The notes under the pieces are model-generated. The model saw only the letters and a program-made list of their open reading frames with translations. It searched no databases and had not been told where the DNA came from. The position numbers were made by a program, and so were the translations under genes. DNA of 64,000 bases. Source: Escherichia coli. Its GTDB lineage: Bacteria; Pseudomonadota; Gammaproteobacteria; Enterobacterales; Enterobacteriaceae. Below are positions 18,699 to 53,795 of this stretch, one piece after another. Position 1 is the first letter of the stretch; the number at the start of each line of letters is the position of its first letter. Location: NCBI RefSeq assembly GCF_050920415.1, contig NZ_CP169309.1, one strand, 5' to 3'.

Positions 18699-18785
18699 GC
18701 CCGGATGGTGGAATCGGTAGACACAAGGGATTTAAAATCCCTCGGCGTTCGCGCTGTGCGGGTTCAAGTCCCGCTCCGGGTACCA
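18699..18785 (+). tRNA. leuZ: tRNA-Leu(UAA), intact copy at the prophage left junction
   Basis: 87 nt, GCCCGGATGGTGGAATCGGTAGACACAAGGGATTTAAAATCCC..GGGTACCA, with a long variable arm. Confidence 0.95.
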
Positions 18786-18855
18786 TGGGAAAGATAAGAA
18801 TAAAATCAAAGCAATAAGCAGTGTCGTGAAACCACCTTCGGGTGGTTTTTTTGTA
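18731..18855 (+). repeat. attL: left copy of the 125-bp direct repeat (3' 55 nt of leuZ plus 70 bp downstream including the terminator)
   Basis: Base-for-base identical to 53671-53795 on manual comparison. Identity starts at TTTAAAATCC in the anticodon loop and ends at ..TTTTTTTGTA. Confidence 0.95.
18829..18853 (+). terminator. rho-independent terminator of the glyW-cysT-leuZ operon (inside the att repeat)
   Basis: ACCACC-TTCG-GGTGGT hairpin plus T7. Confidence 0.85.
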
Positions 18856-18868
18856 TTTGTATTTTGTT

Positions 18869-18900
18869 AAATGGCGGTAAAGTGGCGATGGTGTGGCGAT
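18869..18900 (+). promoter_or_regulatory. candidate integrase arm-type binding sites (P' arm)
   Basis: AAATGGCG (18869-76), AGTGGCGAT (18881-89) and GTGGCGAT (18893-900). The same words recur next to int at 53567-53602. Confidence 0.45.
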
Positions 18901-18989
18901 ATGCAGAAATAATGATAGTACACGTCTGTTTAAACTCTAAGGGTGAAGCAAAACTCTCCTGCAACTCATCTGCATTTCGCATATTGAAC

Positions 18990-19103
18990 TAGGGCCTTGG
19001 TTAAACCAAAGTTTTTTCTGGGATCTTCCCACTCAACTTCATTTTTCCTCCTACCATCCACCAAAAGGTGTCTGCGCTACTCTATCTTTTTTAATCTGAC
19101 AAC
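18990..19103 (-). repeat. degenerate second copy of the hok-type leader (no intact toxin ORF downstream)
   Basis: Aligns by eye at roughly 60-65% identity with 19994-20120 (TAGGGCCTYGGTTAAAC .. CCATC .. AAAGG .. CTATC..TTTTTT). The minus-strand mini-ORF beginning MVGG is conserved in both copies. Confidence 0.5.
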
Positions 19104-19325
19104 ATCCTGAGAAAAAGACAAATTCGTTAGATTTACTGTCTTTCTGCTGCCTCGAATGCTGATGTCTGCAGCACTGATAATAACTCTATCTCTTTGATAT
19201 AGATCTTTTTTTTGATGAATTGCACGGCATATTATCGTGATGGCACCTTCTTGTTAAAGGTGTTGTACTCCTCATCTCGATTTTATGATGTGGGCTATGA
19301 TTGGTTAGTAATAGAGTGTATCGGT

Positions 19326-19607
19326 ATGCGATGTGGTTTATTAATGGCAATCTGCCTTTGTTTGGTATCTTTTAGTGGGTATGCAGCAACAGGAAAGTCA
19401 GATGCTCAGATCAAGAAAGAAATAATTAAAGAGTCCATTGAATCTTATCCAGGCAATTGTGCGTGTCCGTATAATCATGCAAGGAATGGTAGTAGATGTG
19501 GTGGACGCAGTGCATATAGCCGTACTGGAGGGTATGACGTGGTATGTTATGAAAGTGATGTTACCGATGAAATGATCCGGCAATGGAAGCAGGAGAATGC
19601 TGAGTAA
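19326..19607 (+). CDS. small secreted Cys-rich protein (moron; unknown function)
   Basis: 93 aa from MRCGLLMAICLCLVSFSGYA (signal peptide). Mature part has CACPYNHARNGSRCGGRSAYSRTGGYDVVCYE. Low GC relative to the phage. Followed by terminator 19681-19712. Confidence 0.65.
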   Translation: MRCGLLMAICLCLVSFSGYAATGKSDAQIKKEIIKESIESYPGNCACPYNHARNGSRCGGRSAYSRTGGYDVVCYESDVTDEMIRQWKQENAE

Positions 19608-19680
19608 TCTCTTTTAACTGATTTGTTGTGCGAGCATAATGTGCAGTTAACGGCTCACTAGCTAGTGAGAGTTCCAAAAA

Positions 19681-19712
19681 GAAACCCCGCAGTTTTTACG
19701 CTGCGGGGTTGT
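19681..19712. terminator. bidirectional rho-independent terminator shared by the Cys-rich gene (+) and the hok-like gene (-)
   Basis: AACCCCGCAG-N8-CTGCGGGGTT hairpin, with a T-run on the minus strand (TCTTTTTGG) and a T-rich tail on the plus strand. Confidence 0.8.
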
Positions 19713-19938
19713 TATTCATGCCTATGAGATAGGGTGCCTTATCGGCCTTACCCTGGCAACCGATTGACGGGGAGTTGCCTCCCCGTCGCGGTTTCCTTAC
19801 TGCTTACACTGTAAGAACGCCGCAAACTCCGCTCCCCAGAAGCTCATCCGTATTTCACACAGCGAACCGTGCAGCATCCAGATGATGAGGATTACCGTCA
19901 CGCAGAACGTGATGGCCGTAAGCGATTTTTGCGACATA
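19696..19938 (-). CDS. Hok/Gef-family membrane toxin homolog with an unusual C-terminal extension (80 codons); not present in the supplied ORF track
   Basis: Hand translation gives MSQKSLTAITFCVTVILIIWMLHGSLCEIRMSFWGAEFAAFLQCKQ, then VRKPRRGGNSPSIGCQGKADKAPYLIGMNNNPAA*. The first 46 aa align with HokA (..WMIRDSLCELHIKQESYELAAFLACKLKE). An AAGGAG SD lies 6 nt upstream and an in-frame TAG 30 nt upstream. I checked that the frame contains no stops. Confidence 0.75.
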
Positions 19939-20126: not shown

Positions 20127-20387
20127 TTAATTCTGAGGTAAAGGCAAACTCATCTGATTGTTTCCCCTGTGTGAAGCTGGCAGCTCATGCCACGGGATAC
20201 CTTCTGAAGAGTGAACGCCGGAGGCGTGTTTTGATGTGAATTTATGGAAAGCTTCCAGTGTTGAGAAGCATACGCCGCATTCCAGATTGTTACACTGGTA
20301 ATACTTTTGCCGCACGGTGTTTGAATCATTTTCCGGACGACTGGTGCGGATACGGGCAGATGCGCCACAAAGCGGACAACGGAACAT
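20127..20387 (-). CDS. ogr: Ogr/Delta-type zinc-finger late transcription activator
   Basis: 86 aa, MFRCPLCGASARIRTSR..YYQCNNLECGVCF, with the same CxxC..CxxxxC layout as P2 Ogr (MFHCPLCQHAAHARTSRY..). Confidence 0.88.
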   Translation of the reverse strand: MFRCPLCGASARIRTSRPENDSNTVRQKYYQCNNLECGVCFSTLEAFHKFTSKHASGVHSSEGIPWHELPASHRGNNQMSLPLPQN

Positions 20388-20429
20388 AGCGACCTCCCTT
20401 AACGTGGTGCTGCCGCTATTCTAAGTTGC

Positions 20430-21539
20430 TCACTCTGTTTCCGCTATCCATTCCGGGATTTTTGCTTCAAGCTCAAGCTGCGTGGTAAAGCCGCTGTTAT
20501 CAATGGTGTGCTCGGCTTTTGCAATAATCCAGTCCTGATTGTCGATGTCACTTTTGAAGCCTGTCACCGTGCCATGCATTTCGGGATAGAGTTCTGCACG
20601 TCCACGCGCCAGCGTGATGGAGAATGATGCGGCTCCGCGTTGTAGTTGCTGCCACTTTGCCGCCGCTGCGCGTCTTGCTGCCTGCTCGTTCTGATAAGTC
20701 TTGCGTAACACAAACACATTGCCTTCCGCGCCTTCCATATAATCACCTTCACGGCTGCTGCTTTTCTCCTTTTTGGGTTTTGGCGGTTTACGGCGTTTTA
20801 CGCTGACTTTTTTCTTTTTCCCGTAATTAAGATCAAGCCAGTAGGCGCGTACCCCCGTATACGCCTCGCGGTCAGCAATACGGAACTGATGGCGATCGCC
20901 GCTGCTGCGTGTAATGGCGAACGAGGGCAACGGCTGGCCCTGTGCGTTCACGCCACCACCTGGCATGATGAATAACAGATTGCCGCTTTTTACCGTGGTG
21001 ATTGCGCCCAGCATTTCCGCCATGCGCGTAAGGAAGGACATGTCGCTTTCTTCGGTCTGGTCGGCGTGGTCGATTTCAATATCCATCAGCATTTCGCTGA
21101 TTTGCGGTTTCAGGCCGTATCGGTGAGCAATTGCAGACACCACGCGTTCAACGGTCACATCATGCCAGGATACTTCGCGCTTGACGTTAAATTCATCCCG
21201 AAAATCTGCGCTTCTGGCTGAAATGGTCAGTCTGTCGGGCGGTCCTTCATGAGCAATTTCATCAACAATGTAAGTGCCTTTTTCTGTCAGCGGTTCTCCT
21301 TTCCAGCCAATGAGAACCGTCAGGCGCGCGCCCCGTGGCGGTAGCTGCAACTGACCATCTGCATCATCCAGCGTGATGGTGAGCTGGTCCGCCTCAAATC
21401 CCCGGTTGTCGGTCAGTGACAGGCTCATCAGGCGCTCTGCCACGCCTGACAGCGTTTTACCCTCCGCGAGAATATCAAAATCCGGCATTTTCACGGGGTC
21501 TGTGCCCTGACTGAGCAATTGCATGGTGGTGTCGGTCAT
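20430..21539 (-). CDS. P2 gpD-like tail protein
   Basis: 369 aa from MTDTTMQLLSQG (GGGAGG SD). Contains SLSLTDNRGFEADQLTITLDDADGQ, as in P2 gpD. The listed ORF has a spurious 44-codon N-terminal extension. Confidence 0.88.
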   Translation of the reverse strand: MTDTTMQLLSQGTDPVKMPDFDILAEGKTLSGVAERLMSLSLTDNRGFEADQLTITLDDADGQLQLPPRGARLTVLIGWKGEPLTEKGTYIVDEIAHEGPPDRLTISARSADFRDEFNVKREVSWHDVTVERVVSAIAHRYGLKPQISEMLMDIEIDHADQTEESDMSFLTRMAEMLGAITTVKSGNLLFIMPGGGVNAQGQPLPSFAITRSSGDRHQFRIADREAYTGVRAYWLDLNYGKKKKVSVKRRKPPKPKKEKSSSREGDYMEGAEGNVFVLRKTYQNEQAARRAAAAKWQQLQRGAASFSITLARGRAELYPEMHGTVTGFKSDIDNQDWIIAKAEHTIDNSGFTTQLELEAKIPEWIAETE

Positions 21540-21593
21540 CTGTTCCCTCCCTGTGCGGCATGGTCGCATGTGCGTGCGGAGGGGGTTACTGCT

Positions 21594-21621
21594 TTTTGTT
21601 GTCGCCGTGGCGGGAGAACGG
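21594..21621 (+). promoter_or_regulatory. candidate late-activator (Ogr-type) site in the D/FI divergent spacer
   Basis: TTTTGTTGT-N12-AGAACGG. The same TTTTGTTGT-N12-AGAACAG occurs at 39318-39345 in the O/P divergent spacer. Confidence 0.5.
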
Positions 21622-21696
21622 CGCAGGGGTGAGATTACGCGCGTGGTGGGTGATGATTGTTGCCGAATCATTTAACGGATACAAGGGGCTGAAGCT

Positions 21697-22881
21697 ATGA
21701 GTGAAACTCGTTTTCATGGTGCCCGTGTTACGGAAAATACCGACCTGGTAACAGCGATTAACGATGTTGATTCCAGCGTTATCGGTATCGTGGCAACGGC
21801 GGATGATGCGGACGCGGAGCTGTTCCCGCTGAACAAGCCCACATTGCTGACCCGCGTCAATGACGTGCTGGGAAAATGCGGAACAACGGGGACGCTTTAT
21901 CGTGCGCTTAAGGCCATCGCAGACCAGGTGAGCACAAAGGTGATCGTCGTTCGCGTGGCTGAACACAAAGAAGAAGACGGAAAAACGCAGGATCAACTGG
22001 TTATCGGTGGTTCTGAATCTGACGGCAGCTATACGGGGATGTATGCGCTGCTTGTTGCAGAGCAGGATGAAAGCATCGGATACCGTCCGCGTATTCTGGC
22101 CGCGCCGGAGCTGGACACGGAGGCGGTGACAAAATCCTTGTGCGTGATTGCGGGTAAACTGCGCGCGTTTGTGTATGCCACATGTCATGGTTGTAACACG
22201 ATGGCTGAGGCGATTACCTACCGCCAGAAATTCAACGAACGTGAGGTGATGCTCTTATGGCCTGACTTCATCGCCTACAACCCGAAAAGTGGCAAAAACG
22301 AAACGTTCCCCGCGCCTGCTTATGCGTGCGGCCTTCGTGCGTACATTGACCATGAGCAGGGCTGGCACAAATCGCTGTCCAACGTTCCGGTTAAAAATGT
22401 GCTGGGAATGTCCAGGCATGTGTTCTGGTCGTTGCAGGCCGAAGACAGTGATGCCAACAGCCTCAACAACAAAGAAATCACGACCATTATTCGTCGCAAC
22501 GGGTTCCGCTTCTGGGGCAACCGCACACCGGAAACGAACGCCTACATCTTTGAGGTGTATACCCGAACCGCACAGGTACTGGCTGATTCAATTGCGGAAG
22601 CGCAGTTTGAAACCATCGACAGTCCACTGACGCCTGCGAACGTGAAGGATGTTATCAGTGCCATCAGGGCAAAACTGGATTCACTGGTTACTGCCGGGAA
22701 ACTGATTGGCGCGTCGTGCTGGTATGACGTGGTGGATAACAGCACCACGGATTTACGTCAGGGGCGTGTGCGTATTCGCTACAAATATACGCCTGTTCCT
22801 CCGCTGGAAGATATGGAGCTTTACCAGACGTTTACTGATGAATACTTTGATCCCGCATTTGCGGTGTTGGGAGGTGTCTGA
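21697..22881 (+). CDS. P2 gpFI-like contractile tail sheath
   Basis: 394 aa with ..GWHKSLSNVPV..RRNGFRFWGNRT..YTRTAQVLADS.., similar to P2 FI. Confidence 0.9.
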   Translation: MSETRFHGARVTENTDLVTAINDVDSSVIGIVATADDADAELFPLNKPTLLTRVNDVLGKCGTTGTLYRALKAIADQVSTKVIVVRVAEHKEEDGKTQDQLVIGGSESDGSYTGMYALLVAEQDESIGYRPRILAAPELDTEAVTKSLCVIAGKLRAFVYATCHGCNTMAEAITYRQKFNEREVMLLWPDFIAYNPKSGKNETFPAPAYACGLRAYIDHEQGWHKSLSNVPVKNVLGMSRHVFWSLQAEDSDANSLNNKEITTIIRRNGFRFWGNRTPETNAYIFEVYTRTAQVLADSIAEAQFETIDSPLTPANVKDVISAIRAKLDSLVTAGKLIGASCWYDVVDNSTTDLRQGRVRIRYKYTPVPPLEDMELYQTFTDEYFDPAFAVLGGV

Positions 22882-23393
22882 TGGCTGTACCAAAACATCT
22901 TCGCTTTTTTACGCTGTTTGTGAATGGTGAAAACGAAGTGGGTAAGGTGACGTCCGTCACTCCACCTAAACTGACGCGCAAAACTGAAAGCTATCGTGGC
23001 GGTGGCATGATGGGGGCGGTGAGTATCGACCTCGGTCTTGATGATTCTGCGCTTGATGCGAGTTTTGTCATGGGGGGCGCAGTTCGTGAGCTGTTCCTTA
23101 AATATGGCGGCACGATTGACAGCACGTTGCTGCGTTTTGCGGGTGAATACTACACCGATGCAGAAAGTGATCTGTATGAAATCGAGATGCGCGGGCGTGT
23201 GACGGAAATTGATATGGGGGAAGCCAAACAGGGCGAAGCCACATCACACACTTACGCTGTCAAAAACACCTACTACAAGCTGAGCGTTAACGATCGTCCG
23301 CTGTGGGAAATCGACCTGCTGAACCACATCTACCGGAAGGACGGCAAGGACATCGTGCCTGATCGCATCCGTTCCGCGCTTGGGCTTGGCTGA
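22881..23393 (+). CDS. P2 gpFII-like tail tube
   Basis: 170 aa, immediately after the sheath gene (ATGA-type overlap). Confidence 0.88.
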   Translation: MAVPKHLRFFTLFVNGENEVGKVTSVTPPKLTRKTESYRGGGMMGAVSIDLGLDDSALDASFVMGGAVRELFLKYGGTIDSTLLRFAGEYYTDAESDLYEIEMRGRVTEIDMGEAKQGEATSHTYAVKNTYYKLSVNDRPLWEIDLLNHIYRKDGKDIVPDRIRSALGLG

Positions 23394-23449
23394 TAAGTAA
23401 TATGCAGGCGGCGCAGTGCGTCGCCTCTGACTGAAAAAGGAGACAACTG

Positions 23450-23824
23450 ATGCAAAACATCAATACTGAAACCCGGAATAACGCCGTGGCGGATGATGTG
23501 ACGGCAGGTGAGGATATGGCTGTCGAACGTGGCGTAAAACTGGCCCGACCAATTGAGCGCGGTGGCGAAAAAATCACGTATGTGGAAATTACCGGGGCTA
23601 TTGAGCAGGCTGGATCTCTGCGTGGTCTGTCGCTGTCTGATGTGCTGAATCTGAAAGCGGATACCATGTTCACGCTGTTGCCTCGCGTGACCTCGCCACG
23701 ACTGGATGAAGTGATGATTAAAAAAATGTCGTCACGCGATTTTATTCAGTTGTGCGCTGTGGCTGTAAATTTTATGAGCGAGCCAGACTCTGGCGCGAAG
23801 AGCGTGCAGGAGACGGCAGCGTAA
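23450..23824 (+). CDS. P2 gpE-like tail assembly chaperone (zero-frame product)
   Basis: 124-aa ORF; the true start may be the internal MAVERGVKL. Sits in the P2 position between the tube and tape-measure genes. Confidence 0.8.
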   Translation: MQNINTETRNNAVADDVTAGEDMAVERGVKLARPIERGGEKITYVEITGAIEQAGSLRGLSLSDVLNLKADTMFTLLPRVTSPRLDEVMIKKMSSRDFIQLCAVAVNFMSEPDSGAKSVQETAA

Positions 23825-23988
23825 TCACCCTGGTGTGCTTTGAGCACATCGAAGATCTGGTGGCGGATATTGCCGCCATTTTTAACTGGTCGCCCGCCGA
23901 AATCTTCATGATGACGCCCGGCGAAGTGGTTAGCTGGCGTGAGCGGGCGGCACTTCGCAGCGGGAATGCAGACAATGAAGACTCTTGA
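23450..23988 (+). CDS. gpE+E' tail chaperone made by a programmed -1 frameshift at A_AAT_TTT (23767-23773)
   Basis: The -1 frame is open from 23722 to the stop at 23986-88. Its tail ..LVADIAAIFNWSPAEIFMMTPGEVVSWRERAALRSGN resembles the P2 E' tail. The heptamer is in X_XXY_YYZ phase in the E frame. Confidence 0.7.
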
Positions 23989-26776: not shown

Positions 26777-26782
26777 GGAGTC

Positions 26783-27277
26783 ATGGCCATGATGATGATC
26801 TACGGCATGTTTGTTTTTGAGCTGCGCACATTGCCGCATCAGCAGTTACAGCAAAACAAAAGCTGGCGGCATGTGAAAAATGAACGCGTTAACCGTTCAG
26901 CAAGCTGGCAGTATATCGGGGCAGGCGATGATCGCATCGTTCTTTCTGGTGTGCTTTATCCTGAAATTACAGGTGGCGAAGTATCGCTTTCGTTGCTGAC
27001 CACGCAGGCATATACAGGACGCCCCTGGCCTCTGATTGATGGTGTCGGGCAGATTTACGGCATGTATGTCCTGACCGGAACGAATACGACCCGCTCCGAG
27101 TTTGATCGCTACGGTAAGGCGAAAAAGATAGAATTTTCACTGACCCTTGAACGCTGTGATGAGGATTTGCGGGAGCGCCTGCAATCCTCATCGTTCAGCG
27201 ATATGCTGTCCGGCTTCAAAGATAAGGTCACATCATCCCTTAACAGCGCGGCCAGCTCCGTTAAAGGGCTGTTTTGA
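26783..27277 (+). CDS. P2 gpU-like tail protein
   Basis: 164 aa, (MA)MMMIYGMFVFELRTLPHQQLQQNKSWRH.., resembling the P2 gpU N-terminus. Confidence 0.88.
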   Translation: MAMMMIYGMFVFELRTLPHQQLQQNKSWRHVKNERVNRSASWQYIGAGDDRIVLSGVLYPEITGGEVSLSLLTTQAYTGRPWPLIDGVGQIYGMYVLTGTNTTRSEFDRYGKAKKIEFSLTLERCDEDLRERLQSSSFSDMLSGFKDKVTSSLNSAASSVKGLF

Positions 27278-27284
27278 TTAACGC

Positions 27285-27314
27285 AAAACCGCTAATGGTC
27301 AGATTAGCGGTTTT
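27285..27314. terminator. bidirectional hairpin between convergent gpU and invertase genes
   Basis: Perfect 12-bp stem AAAACCGCTAAT-GGTCAG-ATTAGCGGTTTT. It contains the invertase stop codon. Confidence 0.7.
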
Positions 27315-27903: not shown

Positions 27904-27958
27904 GATGGATCCCCTGAATAAAAACCGGGGATGATGCCAGTTAGCCGTAATCTCTGCA

Positions 27959-44665: not shown

Positions 44666-44669
44666 TGGC

Positions 44670-45629
44670 TTACTCCTTGTCCATTGCGTACAGCCCATTA
44701 ACCAGAGCAAACTGTGGCACCCCGTCCGCGATGAAAGTCGCATTAACTCCGCAGGCTTCGCGGATAGCGGGTGCCACAATCTCCGCCCCGCCACCGACAA
44801 CCATCACCCGCCCGTAACCCGAAAAACCCGCCAGCGCGCGGATCACGCGTTGTTTCAGTGTTTCTTCCTTTTCACGAATAACCGCCATCAGGCTGGCGTA
44901 ATGCGCGTCATTGTGGATGTGCTGGCGCAGCCAGGCTTCATCATGGCGATGTTCAATAATGGTATTGGCGATGTGGTGACTGGTGCGCATACCGTTAGTG
45001 GCCATCACCGACAGCACGGCATCGGCCATCAGTGAAACACCTACGTGTGGATCGCAAAACACCTGGCTGATACCTGCCAGTTGTCCCTGAACCTTTGCCA
45101 CATCCAGCGTGGTTCCGCCCAAATCCACAATCAGCAGGGATTCAAACGGACTCATGTCAGCCAGTGCCTTAAAGCCTGCCGGAATGGATTCAGGCATAAC
45201 CCGCACGTTACGGATAGTGAATGCCTCACCGTTCTGGTACTCCACCGGGCGCATAACGTTCGCTTTTTTGCGGTTGATGTTGGCCATGTCCGGCTGTGCG
45301 TTTGTGTCGAAATACTCGCTCAGTGGCAGGGTGACAACCACATCCACCTCCTGTGGCGTGATGCCTGATTTGACCAGCGCGTGATGAATGGCAATGACAT
45401 TCACATCGCTGTATTGGTATTGCGTGTCGGTCGTCTGGACAAAGCGATCGCTGACCGGATCAAAACCATAGCGCACGCCATCAAGCATGTAGTTCGCGGG
45501 CTGCGTGCCACCGAACGGCGCAGACCATTCCGACTTGAAGCTGTTCGGGCTGATGGCGTTGCGGCGTTCGCCGTTCTCAGTCCATGCCAGCTTGATGTTG
45601 GTGGAGCCGTCGTCGATACAAATTTTCAT
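44670..45629 (-). CDS. parM: ParM/StbA actin-like plasmid segregation ATPase
   Basis: 319 aa, MKICIDDGSTNIKLAW..ISPNSFKSEW..YSDVNVIAIHHAL..VMPESIPAGF..LIVDLGGTTLDV..VMVVGGGAE.., colinear with R1 ParM along its full length. Confidence 0.9.
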   Translation of the reverse strand: MKICIDDGSTNIKLAWTENGERRNAISPNSFKSEWSAPFGGTQPANYMLDGVRYGFDPVSDRFVQTTDTQYQYSDVNVIAIHHALVKSGITPQEVDVVVTLPLSEYFDTNAQPDMANINRKKANVMRPVEYQNGEAFTIRNVRVMPESIPAGFKALADMSPFESLLIVDLGGTTLDVAKVQGQLAGISQVFCDPHVGVSLMADAVLSVMATNGMRTSHHIANTIIEHRHDEAWLRQHIHNDAHYASLMAVIREKEETLKQRVIRALAGFSGYGRVMVVGGGAEIVAPAIREACGVNATFIADGVPQFALVNGLYAMDKE

Positions 45630-45705: not shown

Positions 45706-48528
45706 TCATATATCACTGCGCGTTTTTTGCTCATTTACGGGATTCGTGAGTCCCGTTTCTGTCTGTTTTTTGTTTCCGCTGGTCAGGCCACCCCGCAGCA
45801 GGTCTGCTTTGCGGCTGGCGCGTTCAGTGGTTTCACTGATTCTCTGTGCGTGCTCTGCGTCGCGGATGGCGCGCAGCATGTCAGAAAGCACAGTAACGGG
45901 TGTTTTCATGGTGTTCTGGTCCTGCTGAAGTGTGGATGCCAGGCGTGCGGCGGCTTCAGGGTCTGATGCCCCCAGCTGTGCCAGATAGCTGGCGACCGGG
46001 TTATGGCGGATCTCCGTGCTGCTTACGCCATGATTACGGCTCAGGCGCTGCCAGAGCTGCGTGATTCGGCTGTCCGGGCGGGTATCCGGTTTGCGTACAA
46101 TTTCAAATCCCTGCGGTGCAATGATGCTGCCGTCAACGTACAGACTGCCGCCCCGTAACAGGTGCTGCATCTGTTGTTCACCGATATGCAGGCCGAGAGA
46201 TTCAGCAGACTCCCGCCATTCTTTAGCGAGTAATTCGTGGTTATCAGGCAAAGGCCGCTGCTGTTTGCGGCTCTGTGTCCAGCTCTGCATTTCATCACTG
46301 CTGTTTTTTGCCTGTTTGTCACGAAGCGAACGCATCAGCGCCCGGCGTTCGTGCCGTTTCAGTGAGCGCATCCATTCGTTCACTTCAACGCCGTCAGGGA
46401 GCTGCGGCCACGGTGCTGGCCGTTCTTCCGGCTGTTCTGTCCCGTTGTTGTCCGTTTCCTGTGCACGGGGACAGTTATTGCCACGAGTCCAAGGGGCGGC
46501 AGGGCCGCCCTGAAGGTCAAAACCATTTTCGTGGGCGTTGTCTCCCGGTTCTGGTTTACGTCTTACCAGCTTCCAGTTATCCGGATGCGTGCACACACGG
46601 GAGGATTCCCCGATGAGTGGTGACCAGATCCCGTAAATCTGTACGCTCTGTTCGCCGTAATCGTTCAGCTCATCTGCGAGGTCGTAGGCGGTGCGAATCA
46701 GGTAGTCCTTGCGTGGAACAAGCACGCCACCCTGTTTTTCAATGTAGGTGGCAAAACACCCGGCATCGGCGGCAGCGAGTACCGCATCCATTGCATCATC
46801 TTTCAGCCGTTGCGGGCCTTCCGGATTGCGTGCCATCTGGCTGGCAAGGCGGCGCAGTTCACGCCACACCTGACGGGAGGGGATGCCAAAGAACTGGAAC
46901 TGACGGACCCGGTGAAGGCGCGCCCAGCCGATGGCGCGCTCCACGCTCTCGGCCATTGATTTTCCGGTTTCGTGGTCAACGCGTGGCTTGCCCGTTTTCG
47001 GGTCGATGCCATCCACGGCGCGGCTGTCCAGGTTCTTTCCGATGTAGGTGGCGATGTAGCTGGTTGGTGTGCCTTTTGAGCCGTCGACATACTCCGCCTT
47101 AAAACGCGGAGTTATGTCATCGCCCAGCTCGTGGCGGTCCTCCTGAATGGCAATATCGCAGACGTGGGACACGATGGTTTCAATCTCGTCCGGATGTGCA
47201 AAGACCATCATATGCCAGTGCACAGTGCCGTCATGGTGAGGCTCCACCGTGCGGATGCCATACCAGCGCAGGCCGTCGCGGTTCAGTTTTTTGCGGACCG
47301 CCGCAAAAAACGTGTTAACCAGGTAATCGCTGGAGTCGCGCATGGTGGCCCCGTTCCATTTGGGGTTCGGATGACCGTTCTCCGTTGTTGCGTGGTATTT
47401 TGACGGGCAGGTGACGGTCAGAAACACCGCTCTGTCGCCACGGGCTTCGGCCAGAAGTTCCAGTCCCTTCATGGTGGCCATCATTTCTGCCTTACGGTGA
47501 ACCGGGTTACTTACTCCCGCGTAATACACCGTCTCGAGATCAATCGTGAACCCGTCTTCATTTTCCAGCATGAAACTTTTCAGGAAATCGCGTGTTTTCT
47601 CGCGCTGTGCGCGAAACTCGCTTAACGCGTCCTGGCTCAGATAGGGGGATGTTTTTCTGGAAACCAGACAGGCGGCGCGGAGTTGTTCTTCCCGCCACTC
47701 ACAACGTAACAGCCACAGTTTGCGTTTCCACCATTCCGCACAGGTCAAGCGAAGGATTGCGCCCGGCAGCAGCTCCGTGTCCGGTTCGTTCCTCCGGTCT
47801 TTGTCTGTTGTCAGTGCGTCATAATGTGGAGGCATGGCGTGCAGGTGTAACGCCATGCGGGCCAGCATCTGATAAGCCTTCAGGGTTACATCCATGGTCA
47901 GCTCGCCATCAGTCGCGCCAAAGCCATCGCAGAGTTTTTCGAAGGTGCTGCTGAACATCGCCGCCGTCATGGTGGCCAGCGTCTGTATCTGGTGTTTGTT
48001 GAGCTGCGGCAGGTAAAGCAAATCGTCCAGGCGTTCGCGTCCGGCAAGGGAGCGATAACCCGGTGTCAGCCAGCGGTGGTCGGTGCGGTCCAGACGTTCG
48101 AATATTTTGCGCAGGGTTCCGCACGCGTAGCGTTCAGCCTGCCAGCTCTTTTTGCCTTTCCGGCGATCGGCTTCCTGTTTTTTGCGCAGGAAGGAGAGGT
48201 GGCGAATAAGCGGATCGCGCAGATAGGACGGCAGCAGGCGCAGCGAGGCCATGGCTTCATCCACCGCGCCACGTGCCTGTTTTCTGGCGTCTCCTGCCAG
48301 TGTGATGGTTTTGTCCTGTTTTTCCTGTGCGTCCAGGCTTTTATTAATCAGGTTGCCCAGCGGCGTGGCGGAGAACGCCGCATCAGCCATTTCCTGGCGG
48401 CGCTCGTTCTCTGCCCGGTAGGCATCCAGCCAGGAGGAAAGCGCGGATTCAGGAGCGGGGATCCCCGTTCCTTCACGCCCCACTGCGTGGCGCGGTTGTT
48501 GCCAGTCCCTGATGTACTCTGCCGTCAT
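45706..48528 (-). CDS. P2/186 gpA-family rolling-circle replication initiator, unusually long (940 aa)
   Basis: Contains ..RTVEPHHDGTVHWHMMVF.. (the HUH-type motif of the Phage_GPA family). In the P2 position at the end of the early operon. Confidence 0.85.
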   Translation of the reverse strand: MTAEYIRDWQQPRHAVGREGTGIPAPESALSSWLDAYRAENERRQEMADAAFSATPLGNLINKSLDAQEKQDKTITLAGDARKQARGAVDEAMASLRLLPSYLRDPLIRHLSFLRKKQEADRRKGKKSWQAERYACGTLRKIFERLDRTDHRWLTPGYRSLAGRERLDDLLYLPQLNKHQIQTLATMTAAMFSSTFEKLCDGFGATDGELTMDVTLKAYQMLARMALHLHAMPPHYDALTTDKDRRNEPDTELLPGAILRLTCAEWWKRKLWLLRCEWREEQLRAACLVSRKTSPYLSQDALSEFRAQREKTRDFLKSFMLENEDGFTIDLETVYYAGVSNPVHRKAEMMATMKGLELLAEARGDRAVFLTVTCPSKYHATTENGHPNPKWNGATMRDSSDYLVNTFFAAVRKKLNRDGLRWYGIRTVEPHHDGTVHWHMMVFAHPDEIETIVSHVCDIAIQEDRHELGDDITPRFKAEYVDGSKGTPTSYIATYIGKNLDSRAVDGIDPKTGKPRVDHETGKSMAESVERAIGWARLHRVRQFQFFGIPSRQVWRELRRLASQMARNPEGPQRLKDDAMDAVLAAADAGCFATYIEKQGGVLVPRKDYLIRTAYDLADELNDYGEQSVQIYGIWSPLIGESSRVCTHPDNWKLVRRKPEPGDNAHENGFDLQGGPAAPWTRGNNCPRAQETDNNGTEQPEERPAPWPQLPDGVEVNEWMRSLKRHERRALMRSLRDKQAKNSSDEMQSWTQSRKQQRPLPDNHELLAKEWRESAESLGLHIGEQQMQHLLRGGSLYVDGSIIAPQGFEIVRKPDTRPDSRITQLWQRLSRNHGVSSTEIRHNPVASYLAQLGASDPEAAARLASTLQQDQNTMKTPVTVLSDMLRAIRDAEHAQRISETTERASRKADLLRGGLTSGNKKQTETGLTNPVNEQKTRSDI
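45737..45756. repeat. second copy of the dyad (ACGGGATT-N4-AGTCCCGT), inside the 3' end of gene A
   Basis: 73 bp from the first copy. Flanking TTT..GTTT(C/T)T also conserved. Confidence 0.45.
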
Positions 48529-48534: not shown

Positions 48535-48900
48535 TTACTTCGTCATGCCATTCAGGGTGTCGCGGCAGACTGTAGCCAGCCGCTGAATTTCCAGCACGGT
48601 GTCTTCTGTGTCGGCATGGCGATGTGTGATGCGGATGCTGTCGGCAATCACATCGACGATTGCAGAGGATGGGCGCTGGTAAATGCCAATAACGGACGGG
48701 GTGCCACCTTCAATGCGGTAAAGCCTGTAATTTCCCTCGTGGCTGTCAATCATGTAGCGACCATCAATAACAATCTTTCCGTCAGCGAGCTGCGGTACAG
48801 GCAGGGATTTCAGGTACATGTCATAACGATCACGCACGCGAGCGGCAAGATCACGTTCTGTGTTGAGCAGGTATTCAAGAAAGTCGTTGGCGAGAATCAT
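48535..48900 (-). CDS. hypothetical early protein (121 aa)
   Basis: Ends 6 nt before the gene A start. Confidence 0.55.
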   Translation of the reverse strand: MILANDFLEYLLNTERDLAARVRDRYDMYLKSLPVPQLADGKIVIDGRYMIDSHEGNYRLYRIEGGTPSVIGIYQRPSSAIVDVIADSIRITHRHADTEDTVLEIQRLATVCRDTLNGMTK

Positions 48901-49041
48901 TGCGGCAATCCTCTTGTTACAGATGTGCGAAGGCCTCCCGCCGCAAGGTGCAGGAAAGGCCCGGAACAGGAATTAATGGAGTTTGTTTTGCAGCCGGATG
49001 AGCTGCTGAAGCCCGACGTGGTTTCCGGCAGTTGGAGGTGC

Positions 49042-49287
49042 TCATGCTCTGATTTCCCTCAGTAGCTGGTTGAACATCTGGGTTAGTGGGTTGCTACACC
49101 CAAACGGCATCGGGTTTACCTGATAGGAAAAGCGACCGCCTGTTTTGCGCTCTTTTCTTATGACTGAACCGCTGCGCCAGAGACGGCGTAGCTCCGCATT
49201 AATGGTTGTGGTTGGTGTATTCAGTGCTGCGGCGATTTCTCCACCGCTACAACCCGGATTGGCAGCGATGTAGTCCAGAATGGTCAT
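49042..49287 (-). CDS. winged-helix DNA-binding protein (81 aa)
   Basis: MTILDYIAANPGCSGGEIAAALNTPTTTINAELRRLWRSGSVIRKE.. has a wHTH pattern. Confidence 0.6.
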   Translation of the reverse strand: MTILDYIAANPGCSGGEIAAALNTPTTTINAELRRLWRSGSVIRKERKTGGRFSYQVNPMPFGCSNPLTQMFNQLLREIRA

Positions 49288-49487
49288 CTGCGTGACTCCT
49301 GTACCTGTCTGATAAGATTCACCTGCACCACGTTGGTGGCGCAGAAGTAAGTGCCGTCAGTGAGATAGATGTGATGTGCATCCTTTTCTGAACGGTGTTT
49401 GTCGATTGTGGTAATCAGGCGTTCGTCAACTTCGTATTCACGTCCTCTGGAGGTGAAACGAACGACAGGAAAATGCTTAATTGCCAT
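49284..49487 (-). CDS. hypothetical early protein (67 aa)
   Basis: Start at MAIKHFPVVRF behind a strong AAGGAGG SD. The listed ORF is extended. Confidence 0.55.
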   Translation of the reverse strand: MAIKHFPVVRFTSRGREYEVDERLITTIDKHRSEKDAHHIYLTDGTYFCATNVVQVNLIRQVQESRR

Positions 49488-49573
49488 TACGCCTCCTTGG
49501 CGTGTGCGAATACCTCCGCGAATGCGGATTGTTTTCACATTTTCTTATTTAACCTGGGGTCTTATTTGCGCGG

Positions 49574-49687
49574 TTATTCTTCAGTGAAAAAGCGTTCAAT
49601 CTTTTTTACTGAATTAATAATTCGCATAATCCCAATGGCGCAGACCACCGAAATAATCAGAACAAGCCATGAGATAAATATACTCAT
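49574..49687 (-). CDS. 37-aa single-pass membrane peptide (below the ORF-track cutoff)
   Basis: MSIFISWLVLIISVVCAIGIMRIINSVKKIERFFTEE. The ATGA is coupled to the stop of the upstream ORF. Confidence 0.45.
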   Translation of the reverse strand: MSIFISWLVLIISVVCAIGIMRIINSVKKIERFFTEE

Positions 49688-49929
49688 GCGATATTTCCCA
49701 GCTTATACGGTTCAATATGTTCCCCGCATTCTGCGGCACAGATCAGCTCGGAAAGTTCGTTAAGTGCATCCAGATCATCAGCGTAAAAAGCCACGTCATA
49801 CAGACTTCGGATTGCTCTGGTCAATGAGTCACGGGCCGCACGTTCAGCATGAGTGCCTGATGCACTTAAGCGAAAATAAAAACGCTCAAGTGCTTTGTTA
49901 ATGAGAGTTTTATATTCTTTGCCCATCAC
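49684..49929 (-). CDS. hypothetical early protein (81 aa)
   Basis: In the operon; no recognisable domain. Confidence 0.55.
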   Translation of the reverse strand: MMGKEYKTLINKALERFYFRLSASGTHAERAARDSLTRAIRSLYDVAFYADDLDALNELSELICAAECGEHIEPYKLGNIA

Positions 49930-49964
49930 AACGCCCTTTAATCTGCTTTCTGTATTTCAGCTTC

Positions 49965-50225
49965 TTAATCCATACAAATAATTTCGATATAGGGTTCATC
50001 GCCATTAACCTGGCGTGCCTTTTCAGCTTCGCTAATGATTTCTCGTACGGTCTGGTACGGAAGTTCCACAAGCAGTCGCGTGCCGTTCAGATAAACGTAA
50101 GTGGCTTCGTCGGCTCCGTTTTTACCCGCCGGAGTCACTCCGTCAATAGCGGATGCACGTAATAACAGTTCACCGCGAAAATCAATAAAACGGATAAATA
50201 CACCTTGTGCATGGTCTTTGGTCAT
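49965..50225 (-). CDS. hypothetical early protein (86 aa)
   Basis: Start at MTKDHAQGVFIRF, 10 nt after the upstream stop. Confidence 0.55.
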   Translation of the reverse strand: MTKDHAQGVFIRFIDFRGELLLRASAIDGVTPAGKNGADEATYVYLNGTRLLVELPYQTVREIISEAEKARQVNGDEPYIEIICMD

Positions 50226-50235
50226 AAAGCACCTG

Positions 50236-50586
50236 TTATAAATCAGCCTGTTTAATAAAACTTTGCCTGCGAAGCAGACGATCAACCGTGCGAAGTGCTT
50301 CGTATAATGTGAAATCCTGCCCGAACTGATTGTCGCCACAGCTCAATGCAAAAATGCGGTTTCCGGTAAACGGATTGCGTGGGCATTTGTGGACCACGAT
50401 TCCAGCTTTCTCAATCAGCCAGGCATGCTCGCCGATTTGTTTTACAGCGTGGCCATCCGGTGTTGCGTGCGTCTCGTTCAGGTTATAGCGACTGTTACTA
50501 CGTGATGCACTGGTAGTGACGTGGTGTACATGGCGTTCTACGCCATTACGAAATTTGGAGTATGGATTATTAGCGTTTTTTTTCAT
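50236..50586 (-). CDS. hypothetical early protein (116 aa)
   Basis: In the operon. Confidence 0.55.
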   Translation of the reverse strand: MKKNANNPYSKFRNGVERHVHHVTTSASRSNSRYNLNETHATPDGHAVKQIGEHAWLIEKAGIVVHKCPRNPFTGNRIFALSCGDNQFGQDFTLYEALRTVDRLLRRQSFIKQADL

Positions 50587-50607
50587 GATGGTGCTCTGTT
50601 CATTGTT

Positions 50608-50811
50608 TTAGCTGTTAGCCAAAGCGTCTTTTAACATCGCCACAAGGTTTACTTCAGGCTTTTCCATTTTGGCGCGTTTGGGGCGGATAATAATTCGACC
50701 GTCAGCCAACATCTTTTTGCATGTATTAAGAGGGATACCTGTTATCTCTGCATATTTCTGCAGGGATACATAGGGGGCATTCACATTGATATTGATGGTT
50801 ATACCTGACAT
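50608..50811 (-). CDS. Cox/excisionase-like HTH protein
   Basis: 67 aa, ..YVSLQKYAEITGIPLNTCKKMLADGRI.. Second gene of the lytic operon, as for P2 cox / 186 apl. Confidence 0.6.
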   Translation of the reverse strand: MSGITININVNAPYVSLQKYAEITGIPLNTCKKMLADGRIIIRPKRAKMEKPEVNLVAMLKDALANS

Positions 50812-51109: not shown

Positions 51110-51514
51110 ATGAAAAATGATATTGGTCAGCGGTTGCGTGAGGAAAGGGAAAGATTGGGACTTAGTCAAGTTGCCATGAGCGACATTGGTGGAGTCAAAA
51201 AGCTAACTCAGCTTAGATATGAGAAAGGAGATAGCTTTCCTGATGCTGCGTATTTGGCAGCGCTGTCTCGTTTTGGCCTTGATGTTCAGTATGTTGTGTT
51301 GGGAATTCACTCACCTGAAACTTATAACGATGATGAGCAGGAGTTGATTACTCGCTTTCGAGCAGCTTCGTTAGATGTGAAAAACGCGGTGATTGGGGCT
51401 TTAAAAGGTGCGATCAGTGAAAAGGAAACTCAGCCATCAGGACGTGAGTTAAATATTTCTGGTGGTAATAACCGTATTGCTGGTCGTGACTATAACGAAA
51501 CTAAGGGTAGGTGA
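51110..51514 (+). CDS. XRE/CI-type HTH immunity repressor
   Basis: 134 aa, MKNDIGQRLREERERLGLSQVAMSDIGGVKKLTQLRYEKGDSFPDAAYL.. Divergent from the lytic operon. Confidence 0.8.
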   Translation: MKNDIGQRLREERERLGLSQVAMSDIGGVKKLTQLRYEKGDSFPDAAYLAALSRFGLDVQYVVLGIHSPETYNDDEQELITRFRAASLDVKNAVIGALKGAISEKETQPSGRELNISGGNNRIAGRDYNETKGR

Positions 51515-51529
51515 TAGTAGGGAGGTGAC

Positions 51530-52180
51530 ATGGCCGTCAACTCAAACGGTTCAAACAATCGCGTTGCTGGGCGTGATTTTCACGAAAAGAATATTCAGAT
51601 AGAGCGATATGATGGTTCTCATACCGTCAATATCGCAATCCCTTCGAATAATGATGATGACGATCGCCCTTTGCTTAAGGCTCAGCGTAAGGAGCTAAAT
51701 AGTTTGGTTGCTGCTATTGCAGAAGCTAGCAATACTGAAGCGTTTATTATTTGGCAAAAAGTACATGCTGAGATTGGTGTAGCTGGTATTGATGATATGA
51801 CAGTAAATCAATATAAAACAGCGGAGAGTTTTCTGCATGCAATGCTTGAGCGATGTAAAGATCATGATGCCTGTAAGGCTCTTGTAAGTTTATTACTACG
51901 TAACAGTGAAGACTGTGGACTTCGACAAAAACTTCTGCGGTATTGCCATATCAATTTCGGTACAGGACGTTTAAACGATCTTACTCGTTCTCAGTTACAG
52001 TCTGCATTGTCGTGGTTAGAGCAACAATCGGCATCAAGCCACACAGAGAGTTCGACCTTACCAGAAGTCCGACTTCGTGCTTCAGAATTAATCCGACTTT
52101 ATCCAAAAGAAATAATATTCTTTATCTGCGTAGGGGGTTTGGTAGGCGGTGTCATTTCTAGGGTGCTTTTTAATTTGTAA
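51530..52180 (+). CDS. C-terminally membrane-anchored protein of unknown function, co-transcribed with the repressor
   Basis: 216 aa with a C-terminal TM helix IIFFICVGGLVGGVISRVLF. The N-terminus shares the NNR(I/V)AGRD(Y/F)xE motif with the repressor C-terminus. Confidence 0.65.
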   Translation: MAVNSNGSNNRVAGRDFHEKNIQIERYDGSHTVNIAIPSNNDDDDRPLLKAQRKELNSLVAAIAEASNTEAFIIWQKVHAEIGVAGIDDMTVNQYKTAESFLHAMLERCKDHDACKALVSLLLRNSEDCGLRQKLLRYCHINFGTGRLNDLTRSQLQSALSWLEQQSASSHTESSTLPEVRLRASELIRLYPKEIIFFICVGGLVGGVISRVLFNL

Positions 52181-52209
52181 TCTTACTTGAGCTAAATTGA
52201 GGTAATGAT

Positions 52210-52557
52210 ATGAAAGTAAAAAAGGTTCAACTATTAGTTACTTTTTTATCTATGTTTTCTTTTTCCGCCGTCGCAATGCCTTTTAAAACTATTGAACGTG
52301 AGAGTTTCAATGGGGTATGGCCATTTAATACTGATGAGGTTCAATTACAGTGTCTTGATGGTAATCCTTATGTGATGAATTTTGACGATAATAAGTTATA
52401 TGCACTTACAGGTTTGGCTCGAATAAAAGGTAAAACATTTGGTGCGTTACCGTTAGATAACAATAATCCATTTTGGCTAGATAATGATGCCGCCCCAGGG
52501 TTAAAAAAGAGTCTGGGGGATGTCACTAAGGCTGCATTTGATTTATGTGATAAGTAA
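52210..52557 (+). CDS. YebY-like (DUF2511) periplasmic protein
   Basis: 115 aa with a signal peptide. The W.FN..EV.L.C and C-terminal Cys pattern matches E. coli YebY. Confidence 0.65.
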   Translation: MKVKKVQLLVTFLSMFSFSAVAMPFKTIERESFNGVWPFNTDEVQLQCLDGNPYVMNFDDNKLYALTGLARIKGKTFGALPLDNNNPFWLDNDAAPGLKKSLGDVTKAAFDLCDK

Positions 52558-52562
52558 CTAAA

Positions 52563-53564
52563 ATGTCGGTTCGTAAGATTCCATCAGGTAAATGGCTTTG
52601 CGAATGTTATCCCTACGGGGCATCGGGAAAACGCATTCGTAAACAGTTTGCGACAAAAAGTGAGGCGCTCTCTTATGAGCGCCGTTTAATGAATAGTAGA
52701 GTTGGAGACGAGTTTCAAGATGGTTCTGGTCCTCGTCTTTCTGAGTTGATTGCTCGTTGGTTTGAGATGTACGGTAAAACCTTGTCCTCTGGTGCAGAGC
52801 GCAAAGTCAAACTTGAGGCGATTTGTTCCAGGCTGGGAGATCCATTTGCTTCTCAGTTTGACAAAAATATGTTTGCTACTTATCGGGAAAGAAGGCTATC
52901 AGGAGAATGGAATCCCAAGGGGAAGAAAAAACTTAGTGAAGCAACCGTTAATCGCGAGCAGTCATATCTACATGCTGTTTTTGCCGAACTGAAGCGCCTT
53001 GGGGAGTGGTCTGGTGAAAACCCCCTGACTGGTATTCGCAAGTTTCGTGAGGAAGAAAAGGAACTGGCGTTTCTGTATGTAGATGAGATTGAACGCCTTC
53101 TGATTGCGTGTGATGAGTCACGGAATAAAGATTTGGGGGTTGTTGTCCGTATTGGGCTTGCGACTGGTGCTCGGTGGAGTGAAGCAGAAGGATTAAAGCA
53201 ATCTCAAGTACTGCCCGGTCGAATCACATTTGTTAAAACTAAAGGAAAGAAGAACCGCACTGTACCGATTTCACCTCAATTGCAGGCTATGCTTCCTAAA
53301 AAACGAGGAGCGCTATTTTCACCATGTTATGAGGCTTTTGACGCTGCAATTAAGAGAGCGAAGATCGAGCTTCCTGATGGGCAATTAACTCATGTGCTAC
53401 GTCACACGTTTGCCAGTCATTTTATGATGCGGGGCGGAAATATTCTTGTGTTGCAAAAAATACTGGGGCATAGCGATATAAAAATGACTATGCGTTATGC
53501 GCATTTTGCTCCAGGTCATTTAGAGGCTGCTGTTGAATTGAACCCTTTTGACAATAGAGGGTAA
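52563..53564 (+). CDS. int: tyrosine integrase (P2-type)
   Basis: 333 aa, ..HVLRHTFASHFMMRGGNILVLQKILGHSDIKMTMRYAHF.. (R..HxxR..Y catalytic box). Confidence 0.92.
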   Translation: MSVRKIPSGKWLCECYPYGASGKRIRKQFATKSEALSYERRLMNSRVGDEFQDGSGPRLSELIARWFEMYGKTLSSGAERKVKLEAICSRLGDPFASQFDKNMFATYRERRLSGEWNPKGKKKLSEATVNREQSYLHAVFAELKRLGEWSGENPLTGIRKFREEEKELAFLYVDEIERLLIACDESRNKDLGVVVRIGLATGARWSEAEGLKQSQVLPGRITFVKTKGKKNRTVPISPQLQAMLPKKRGALFSPCYEAFDAAIKRAKIELPDGQLTHVLRHTFASHFMMRGGNILVLQKILGHSDIKMTMRYAHFAPGHLEAAVELNPFDNRG

Positions 53565-53566
53565 AA

Positions 53567-53602
53567 AGTGGCGATAAAAAGTGACAATAGATTCAAATGG
53601 CG
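53567..53602 (+). promoter_or_regulatory. candidate integrase arm-type binding sites (P arm)
   Basis: AGTGGCGAT (53567-75), AGTGACAAT (53580-88) and AAATGGCG (53595-602), matching the words at 18869-18900. Confidence 0.45.
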
Positions 53603-53670
53603 TTGTATAGAGCCATTTTCAAAGTTAATAAAATCATAAGGTTATGATTTATAAATGGTGGTTGATAGTT

Positions 53671-53725
53671 TTTAAAATCCCTCGGCGTTCGCGCTGTGCG
53701 GGTTCAAGTCCCGCTCCGGGTACCA
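53671..53725 (+). pseudogene. displaced 3' fragment of leuZ (55 nt, no 5' half)
   Basis: Starts in the anticodon loop (TTTAAAATCCC..) and ends GGGTACCA. Confidence 0.9.
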
Positions 53726-53795
53726 TGGGAAAGATAAGAATAAAATCAAAGCAATAAGCAGTGTCGTGAAACCACCTTCGGGTGGTTTTTTTGTA
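53671..53795 (+). repeat. attR: right copy of the 125-bp direct repeat
   Basis: Identical to 18731-18855. Confidence 0.95.

Follow-up and report, generated by a model that had tools for sequence, protein, structure and literature searches.

What kind of element places a perfect 125-bp direct repeat at both ends of a ~35-kb insertion in a tRNA gene, and does a repeat of that length set it apart? The question is raised by the region between leuZ, which encodes tRNA-Leu(UAA), and yecA in Escherichia coli contig NZ_CP169309.1 (RefSeq assembly GCF_050920415.1), from which a stretch of 64,000 nucleotides (the window) was analyzed. We conclude with high confidence that the region holds a temperate P2-family phage, apparently intact, that a tyrosine integrase inserted it into the leuZ anticodon loop by site-specific recombination, and that a block of ~124 bp carried in its attP rebuilds both the gene and the terminator. 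A preliminary description of the window had proposed a P2-family prophage in leuZ with the repeat copies as attL and attR, and this is borne out by the gene set, the empty site and the matches to phages.

The two repeat copies (18731–18855 and 53671–53795) are identical over 125 bp, exactly to the base as first described, and neither can be extended by 1 base on either side. Chance cannot produce an exact repeat of this length in 64 kb. ARAGORN, with which Rfam was concordant, placed the leuZ anticodon (taa) at 18733–18735 and the genes glyW and cysT at 18484–18559 and 18613–18686, respectively. The repeat opens with the first base of the anticodon loop, which is 7 nt long (TTTAAAA, 18731–18737), and it comprises the 3′ 55 nt of leuZ followed by a 70-bp downstream trailer that includes the operon terminator, an extent already recognized in the preliminary description and confirmed by ARAGORN and the terminator scan. 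The terminator, GAAACCACC-TTCG-GGTGGTTT followed by a T run, was located by the scan and by RNA folding within both copies (18828–18852 and 53768–53792), and the repeat ends 3 bp past the T run. The same scan placed a promoter-like site for the tRNA operon at 18383–18410.

When the interval 18856–53795 was removed, the window was colinear with K-12 from uvrC through ftnA (5,855 aligned bp, 97.6% identity). In K-12, pgsA-glyW-cysT-leuZ is followed directly by yecA-tyrP, so that the insertion first deduced from this adjacency was recovered in the alignment, together with its empty site. Probes for the two junctions were searched against 5,426 complete E. coli genomes. In genomes without the element, the left-junction probe matched only to 18854/18855 and the right-junction probe only from 53671, which are exactly the repeat edges; an uninterrupted site with a single copy of the block was found in K-12, N3 and 7/2. 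The element has an intact tRNA gene, a co-oriented 55-nt 3′ fragment of that gene at 53671–53725, a tyrosine integrase inside the element and a single-block empty site in relatives, and by these sequence features it fits the Islander definition of a prophage that integrates in a tRNA gene and carries a tRNA gene (tDNA) fragment in attP. An attP with a tDNA fragment restores the gene that integration splits, and anticodon-centered sites form the largest class, with 2,083 of 3,919 islands (PMC4383910).

Contiguous attP, running from int through the P arm and the 125-bp block to the P′ arm, was found in two IMG/VR contigs, one of which is 34,888 bp long, about one phage unit. The attP reconstructed from the window was 99% identical to one of them (L009) over 1,070 bp and 95% identical to the other (L010). 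No free-phage record with this attP was found in INPHARED, in which the best match, "phage 520873", is an excised prophage region with the yecA flank attached. Three "phage" records that matched 124 bp of the repeat at 100%, among them vB_EcoM-705R4 (ON470624.1, 4001–4124), were considered as alternative attP sequences and rejected, as they too are prophage regions with a yecA flank. The vB_EcoM-705R4 element is a different prophage at leuZ-yecA, with early genes of the lambdoid/Q-antiterminator type and P2-like tail genes.

Polymorphisms in the block tell its two copies apart. In O157-lineage elements the leuZ-side copy carries A64C and T122C and the int-side copy is of K-12 type (blastn), and in strain B1-56 the int-side copy carries T71C. 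In lysogens other than that of the window, the int-side copy ends in G, as in K-12, and the leuZ-side copy, where captured, ends in A. Therefore, the leuZ-side copy is the phage's and the int-side copy is the host's, and the way in which the variants are split between the copies places the exchange to the left of repeat position 64. The crossover thus lies in the tRNA-proximal half of the repeat, at positions 1–63. The polymorphisms also account for the last base. The window repeat was matched at 124 of 125 bases by K-12 and by the int-side copies of all other lysogens examined. The difference is the final base (window position 53795), at which K-12 and the four lysogens read have G and the window has A, the phage allele. 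The usual phage-host identity is 124 bp, and the window repeat reaches 125 because its host flank carries A as a minority allele: a 60-nt probe with A at this base was matched exactly in 157 genomes and with a mismatch in ~4,200. A scar left by the phage was considered as the source of A125 and rejected as unnecessary, the A allele being found at empty sites as well; since a crossover cannot move the last base of a homology block, A125 was treated as a host polymorphism.

The repeat had been called unusually long by comparison with P2, of which the att core is ~27 bp. P2 is the wrong yardstick, and its 27-bp core belongs to another integrase group. Over its full length the window integrase shares 58% identity with HP1 Int and 56% with 186 Int, and its best match in the PDB was the catalytic domain of HP1 Int (1AIH), the P2 Int catalytic domain being more distant; by homology it is an integrase of the 186/HP1-type group. 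Long identities are usual in this group: when the homology between HP1 and its host was measured in two Haemophilus influenzae genomes, it extended ~181 bp from the core at ~97% identity, and the published figure is reportedly 182 bp. As a separate observation, in H. influenzae 51P10H1 (NZ_CP135913.1) one copy of the HP1 block continues into the HP1 P′ arm (341 bp at 97% identity), so that this strain appears to carry an HP1-like prophage junction. Integrases of the 186/HP1 type have tRNA-gene targets and long cores, HP1 itself integrating in tRNA-Leu, and P2-type integrases mostly insert between genes rather than in tRNA genes; cores of P2-like phages measure 50 nt in ΦESP and 110 nt in ΦKPN (PMC3448106).

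The arms flanking the block point to the same group. An arm consensus, YAYCGCCAYTY (reverse complement RARTGGCGRTR), was taken from the 186 record, in keeping with repeats of the GCCAC/GTGGC type described for such phages (PMC3448106). Candidate sites, all pointing the same way, were found on both arms. The window contains five exact matches to the consensus, three of them no more than 110 bp from the repeat, and RARTGGCGRTR had more matches in the window than in any of 100 shuffles. From these motifs, the arm-type candidates and an IHF-like site in the P arm are predicted to be functional. Homology of Int, arm repeats on both sides, a Cox/Apl-type gene that is first in the early operon and divergent from the repressor-int operon, and a tRNA site with a core that rebuilds the gene are all features of 186/HP1-type att systems. 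Those of P2 sensu stricto, a P2-type Int, tgTGGaCa arm repeats, a short core and a non-tRNA site, were not found at this locus.

On this basis, integration would proceed as follows. In attP, the P arm lies directly downstream of int and is followed by the ~124-bp host-identical block and then by the P′ arm with its three arm-type site candidates. Int bound to the arm sites, probably together with IHF, would synapse attP with the leuZ anticodon stem-loop, and strands would be exchanged across the 7-nt loop, which forms the block's left edge and in attB has the AGGGA/TCCCT anticodon stem on its two sides. The host's 5′ 32 nt of leuZ would then be followed by 3′ 55 nt, a trailer and a terminator brought by the phage, so that the tRNA gene and the operon terminator would stay intact, and the original host copy would be displaced to the int end, giving the 125-bp direct repeat and an intact tRNA distal to int. 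That the intact tRNA stands at this end had been noted from the start and is confirmed; it is no anomaly, because the order in attP is int, P arm, core and tRNA 3′ half, as it is in HP1. By analogy with HP1, P2 and 186, excision would require Int and the Cox-like protein, and the exact cleavage sites are likewise placed by analogy. No tRNA other than the leuZ product is known to read UUA codons in E. coli, and loss of leuZ should therefore not be tolerated.

The phage unit is 34,940 bp long and contains no insertion sequence (IS) elements and no truncated genes (Table 1). Searches of the window proteins with Pfam and PHROG confirmed Ogr, D, FI, FII, T, U, H, I, J, W, V, S, R, L, M, N, O, P, Q and gpA, as well as an M15 endolysin, ParM, a serine invertase, a Cox-like protein, a helix-turn-helix (HTH) repressor and the tyrosine integrase. 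The same gene order was found in two other lysogens (PGAP annotation), which matched 86–89% of the window prophage at ~96% identity. The genes listed in the preliminary description held for int, a CI-like repressor, Cox, gpA, Q to L, the lysis genes, R to H, FI to D and ogr; X was recovered only by PGAP, and G only as a PGAP "tail fiber assembly protein". Its ribbon-helix-helix label for the early operon was supported by no search, the first early gene being Cox-like (phrog_575).

The closest phages in the database were P88 and other members of Xuanwuvirus (P884B11, 520873, 500465-2 and Shae_phiSM), with 95–96% identity over 81–85% of the structural half, which supplies the closest Peduoviridae relative that the preliminary description had left to be named. 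Phage 520873 also matched 85% of the half with replication, immunity and int at 94% identity, and its record ends in the same att block and yecA flank, and therefore at the same integration site. Coverage of the two halves was 84–85% at 94–96% identity for 520873, and 85% and 65%, respectively, at 95–96% identity for P88. P88 has a different immunity and int module, with no match beyond window position 50538, so the window phage is a mosaic within the genus and not a copy of P88; Xuanwuvirus members also differ from one another in the tail-fiber/invertase and cargo regions. The ICTV genus threshold is ~70% nucleotide identity. Judged by coverage and identity rather than by formal intergenomic similarity, the prophage is a P88-like member of the genus Xuanwuvirus in Peduoviridae.

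Table 1. Features of the leuZ prophage and its attachment sites, with window coordinates.
Feature	Coordinates	Strand	Basis and remarks
Intact leuZ, tRNA-Leu(UAA)	18699–18785	+	ARAGORN, Rfam; 5′ 32 nt host-derived, 3′ 55 nt presumably phage-supplied
attL identity block, left copy: anticodon loop, rest of leuZ, 70-bp trailer, operon terminator	18731–18855	+	Exact repeat
Core TTTAAAATCCCTCG: 7-nt anticodon loop and 3′ anticodon stem	18731–18744	+	Identical to HP1 attP core; loop is the putative overlap/crossover region
Intrinsic terminator of glyW-cysT-leuZ operon, phage-supplied copy	18828–18852	+	Terminator scan, RNA fold
P′ arm: three tandem arm-type Int-site candidates AAATGGCGGTA, AAGTGGCGATG, GTGTGGCGATA, 11-bp spacing	18869–18901	+	Fit 186 consensus RARTGGCGRTR (NC_001317)
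Hok/Gef-family toxin gene just inside attL	19797–19937	−	phrog_251, E = 2.5e-23; PGAP Hok/Gef in lysogens
ogr	20127–20387	−	Pfam Ogr_Delta
D	20430–21539	−	Pfam Phage_GPD
Tail operon: FI (sheath), FII (tube), E/E′, T (tape measure), U	21697–27277	+	Pfam; PGAP of lysogens
Variable tail-fiber region, including invertase and assembly genes	27304–30922	both	
Serine DNA invertase	27304–27903	−	Pfam Resolvase and HTH_7
Inverted repeats	27968–27996 and 29765–29793		Inverted-repeat search
H	29441–30922	−	Tail-fiber domains (Pfam)
I, J, W, V, S, R, lysis genes (LysB/C region, holin), X, L, M, N, O	30919–39284	−	Pfam, PGAP
M15 endolysin	34982–35374	−	Pfam
P (large terminase), Q (portal)	39406–42203	+	Pfam
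Variable cargo region, four small open reading frames	42656–44327	−	PHROG matches of unknown function
ClpX-type zinc-finger protein (cargo)	43958–44290	−	
Partition module: ParM (44670–45629) and small partner protein	44354–45629	−	Pfam StbA_N, ParM_N; PGAP
Replication endonuclease gpA	45706–48528	−	Pfam Phage_GPA, E = 1.7e-129
Early operon; first gene (50608–50811) Cox-like excisionase/repressor	48535–50811	−	phrog_575, E = 1.2e-27; DUF4761; 26% identity to HP1 Cox
Lysogenic operon	51110–53564	+	Pfam, PHROG
CI-type HTH repressor	51110–51514	+	
Membrane protein, 216 amino acids	51530–52180	+	phrog_5825
DUF2511 protein	52210–52557	+	
Tyrosine integrase	52563–53564	+	Pfam Int_N, Phage_integrase; PDB 1AIH, E = 4.6e-75
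P arm: arm-type candidates 53566–53576, 53579–53589 (degenerate), 53595–53605	53566–53670	+	Motif match; alignment with HP1 P arm; putative function
IHF-like or palindromic element, P arm	53632–53648 (IHF-like site 53632–53644)	+	Motif only; putative
attR identity block, right copy: displaced host leuZ 3′ fragment, trailer, terminator	53671–53795	+	Exact repeat; host type (G end) in all other lysogens examined

Among the 5,426 genomes, the int-side junction (int-block-yecA) was present in 491 and the junction of leuZ, block and phage in 614, and ~90% had neither. The prophage had been described as strain-specific, which with these counts, and with a degraded copy in O157:H7, is true only in the sense of "accessory". 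The surplus of ~120 genomes with the leuZ-side junction over those with the int-yecA junction may reflect remnants without int, sites with tandem or hybrid occupancy, or elements whose int module is a different one. In O157:H7, a ~21-kb IS-degraded derivative occupies the same leuZ site, with an Int identical to that of the window at 332 of 333 positions. It corresponds to the published prophage Sp13, which we take to be CP-933T of EDL933. Sp13, a P2-like prophage of O157 Sakai, has been placed at leuZ (PMC8190617), and its circles arise by spontaneous excision and are ~30-fold more abundant after mitomycin C (PMC2669165). leuZ is also a site for prophages or integrative elements in Shiga toxin-producing E. 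coli of serogroups O121 and O145 (PMC8767318, PMC7067040). Separately, the boundary of vB_EcoM-705R4 was found at the same base, the first of the anticodon loop, with its gene-D end facing yecA and its orientation opposite to that of the window phage; the leuZ anticodon loop may be used by more than one phage lineage.

Several points weigh against the reading given at the outset. The role of the arm-type and IHF sites is drawn from sequence motifs alone. The contigs with contiguous attP belong to relatives (95–99% identical) rather than to this strain, and a 125-bp repeat could in principle lead an assembler to join ends through it. The crossover is bounded only to positions 1–63, the tRNA part being invariant in E. 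coli. Intactness was judged only from open reading frames and similarity to isolated phages, and inducibility in this strain is predicted only. P88, finally, matches neither the immunity genes nor int of the window phage.

It is possible, though on balance doubtful, that only the tRNA part of the block is needed and that the 70-bp trailer and terminator are neutral passenger host DNA, kept near-identical by recent ancestry or by homologous exchange between copies. In the 1992 work of Hauser and Scocca, the minimal attB of HP1 is said to be only about the anticodon stem-loop, which counts in favor of such a passenger. The O157-lineage element tolerates A64C and T122C in its trailer, the latter in the terminator T run, and the Sakai counterpart Sp13 still excises (PMC2669165), the variants having been read in O157-lineage elements and not in the Sakai att; core length outside the tRNA gene also varies widely among related phages, 50 versus 110 nt (PMC3448106). 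Selection on the trailer is favored, however, by the right edge of the block, which falls 3 bp after the T run, the end of a functional unit and not an arbitrary point, just as the HP1 block ends just past the complete downstream tRNA-Lys gene. Without the phage copy, moreover, transcripts of the tRNA operon would lack a terminator of their own and would enter the prophage antisense to hok, ogr and D.

A further step, that the phage has co-opted the captured terminator for a dual purpose, to end the cI-int operon in every state and to block read-through from the tRNA operon at attL, is offered tentatively and is rather unlikely. In attP and attR alike, the terminator is co-oriented with int and lies ~200 bp downstream of the int stop codon. 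No plus-strand terminator was reported between the int stop and the repeat, by a scan that also missed the repeat-borne hairpin at that copy. Because the captured terminator is inside the block, is co-oriented and has no reported predecessor, it would end the cI-int operon whether the phage is integrated or free. In 186, by contrast, the terminator of the lysogenic operon is annotated beyond the core, so that integration should separate it from int. The 125-bp identity may also enable the prophage to be lost or gained through RecA, without Int, and trailer alleles to be shuffled between phage and host.

Although it looks intact, the prophage could be cryptic or defective in this strain and fixed like the O157 remnant, but this is unlikely. 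Many leuZ occupants are indeed degraded, the O157-lineage elements being 21-kb IS-riddled remnants; the left junction outnumbers the int junction by the ~120 genomes noted above; and the case for intactness in this strain is made from sequence. Yet all morphogenesis, lysis, replication and regulatory genes are full-length open reading frames with strong family matches, the structural genes are 95–96% identical to those of P88 and other deposited P88-like phages, the att repeats are perfect and the interval is free of IS elements, and even the degraded Sp13 excises (PMC2669165).

An exchange of strands elsewhere in the repeat than the anticodon loop is very improbable. Positions 1–63 do include the T loop and the acceptor end, and in the 186 record the predicted crossover lies at one end of the 36-bp common core in the 3′ end of ileY. 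Against this, the left end of the repeat coincides exactly with the first anticodon-loop base, which also bounds vB_EcoM-705R4, an unrelated prophage. The same 14-nt core occurs at the same place in HP1 attP despite divergence of the tRNA further 3′. In HP1, strand exchange reportedly takes place within the anticodon loop. The HP1 exchange points were mapped experimentally (Hauser and Scocca, 1992, referenced in PMC3448106), and anticodon-centered sites are the most common class (PMC4383910). By analogy, we infer a crossover in the anticodon loop of leuZ. The idea that the repeat is an assembly or duplication artifact rather than a pair of att sites can be dismissed, as the same junctions recur in hundreds of independent complete genomes, empty sites carry one copy and contiguous attP exists.

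Several observations concern the accessory genes. The Hok/Gef gene is adjoined by strong hairpins (19683–19710 and 19765–19788), and it is probably a post-segregational killing module that stabilizes the prophage; Rfam at gathering thresholds reported only three tRNAs in the window and no RNA family of the hok/sok type. Between attL and hok, a small open reading frame (19326–19607, plus strand) encodes a "hypothetical protein" conserved in lysogens, with counterparts WP_001303543.1 (O157-lineage, B1-56 and Eco_23-3511 lysogens) and WP_071529678.1 (2014EL-1346-6). Its product has a hydrophobic, signal-peptide-like N terminus and several cysteines and had no PADLOC match; from these features, the gene may be a moron for a secreted protein or a lipoprotein. 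Transcription of D and ogr runs toward leuZ and that of FI-FII-E-T-U divergently away from these two genes (20127–27277), a layout that is shared with other lysogens and is presumably typical of the genus; in P2, FI through D and ogr are co-linear.

The invertase adjoins H and alternative fiber and assembly open reading frames on the opposite strand, with ~1.8 kb between imperfect inverted repeats (76% complementary), and the arrangement looks like a host-range switch of the Gin/Cin type. The fiber/invertase region is one of the two that diverge most between lysogens. The cargo stretch between Q and the partition genes also varies among lysogens: it had no DNA match in the two lysogens compared (L005 and L007), and in one of these, strain Eco_23-3511 (L005 23980–27263), it encodes an S8 peptidase and an AAA ATPase. 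Two of the cargo open reading frames in the window resemble genes of the Ea22/EaA region of Shiga toxin phages, and PADLOC found no known defense system in the window cargo or in the genes beside cI. The plasmid-type partition module, ParM with its small partner, is conserved in this integrating phage lineage. In the lysogenic operon, the genes for a membrane protein and a DUF2511 protein sit between the repressor and int; from this position, lysogens are likely to express both, and the two could act in superinfection exclusion or lysogenic conversion.

Taken as a whole, the element is ordinary and already known: the prophage lineage to which it belongs and the site that it occupies have both been described before. 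What looked anomalous against P2 is the normal HP1/186-type design, in which attP carries the 3′ part of the target tRNA gene and the operon DNA that follows it. With leuZ occupied by this phage type in ~9–11% of complete E. coli genomes, the prophage is a common accessory element, and a lysogen expresses a leuZ whose 3′ half, like the operon terminator, comes from the phage and, as the O157 lineage shows, need not match the host allele. The Int/att pair is a well-defined E. coli counterpart of the biochemically characterized HP1 system and could serve as a leuZ-targeted integration tool.

Among known systems, P2 shares morphogenetic, lysis, replication (gpA) and ogr genes with the window phage. 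Sp13 and its relatives share the leuZ site: the element of O157:H7 strain G5295 has the early operon, A, parM and tail genes in common with the window prophage, 46% of which it covers at 95% identity. Sp13, however, is a ~21-kb remnant with IS elements in which the genes for head and packaging and most of those for the baseplate are missing. Two internal positions distinguish the leuZ-side att copy of G5295 from its host copy, whereas the window prophage is full length with perfect repeats. The Eganvirus 186 resembles the window phage in its Int (56% identity), arm consensus, tRNA-gene target, truncated tRNA in attP, Apl/Cox-type excisionase and cI-int operon; it differs in its target, ileY, in having only 36 bp in common with attB, in the order of its tail and late-control genes and in its structural genes. 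The Haemophilus phage HP1, a Hpunavirus of Peduoviridae, differs in the genus of its host and in the extent of its block, which runs through a complete tRNA-Lys (~181 bp) rather than to an operon terminator (125 bp). The CI repressors of the two phages are unrelated, Cox is only 26% identical, and the structural genes here are P88-like and not HP1-like; an HP1-like immunity module as a whole was accordingly rejected, the likeness being confined to Int, att and, weakly, Cox. In HP1 as here, a Cox-like excisionase is the first early gene, and attP follows the same order: the int stop, a P arm with TGGCG-type repeats (CTGGCGAT/CTGGCGGT), the core, the 3′ half of tRNA-Leu, more host-identical DNA and a P′ arm with TGGCG repeats. 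The 14-nt core TTTAAAATCCCTCG, comprising the tRNA-Leu(UAA) anticodon loop and 3′ stem, is identical in the two phages.

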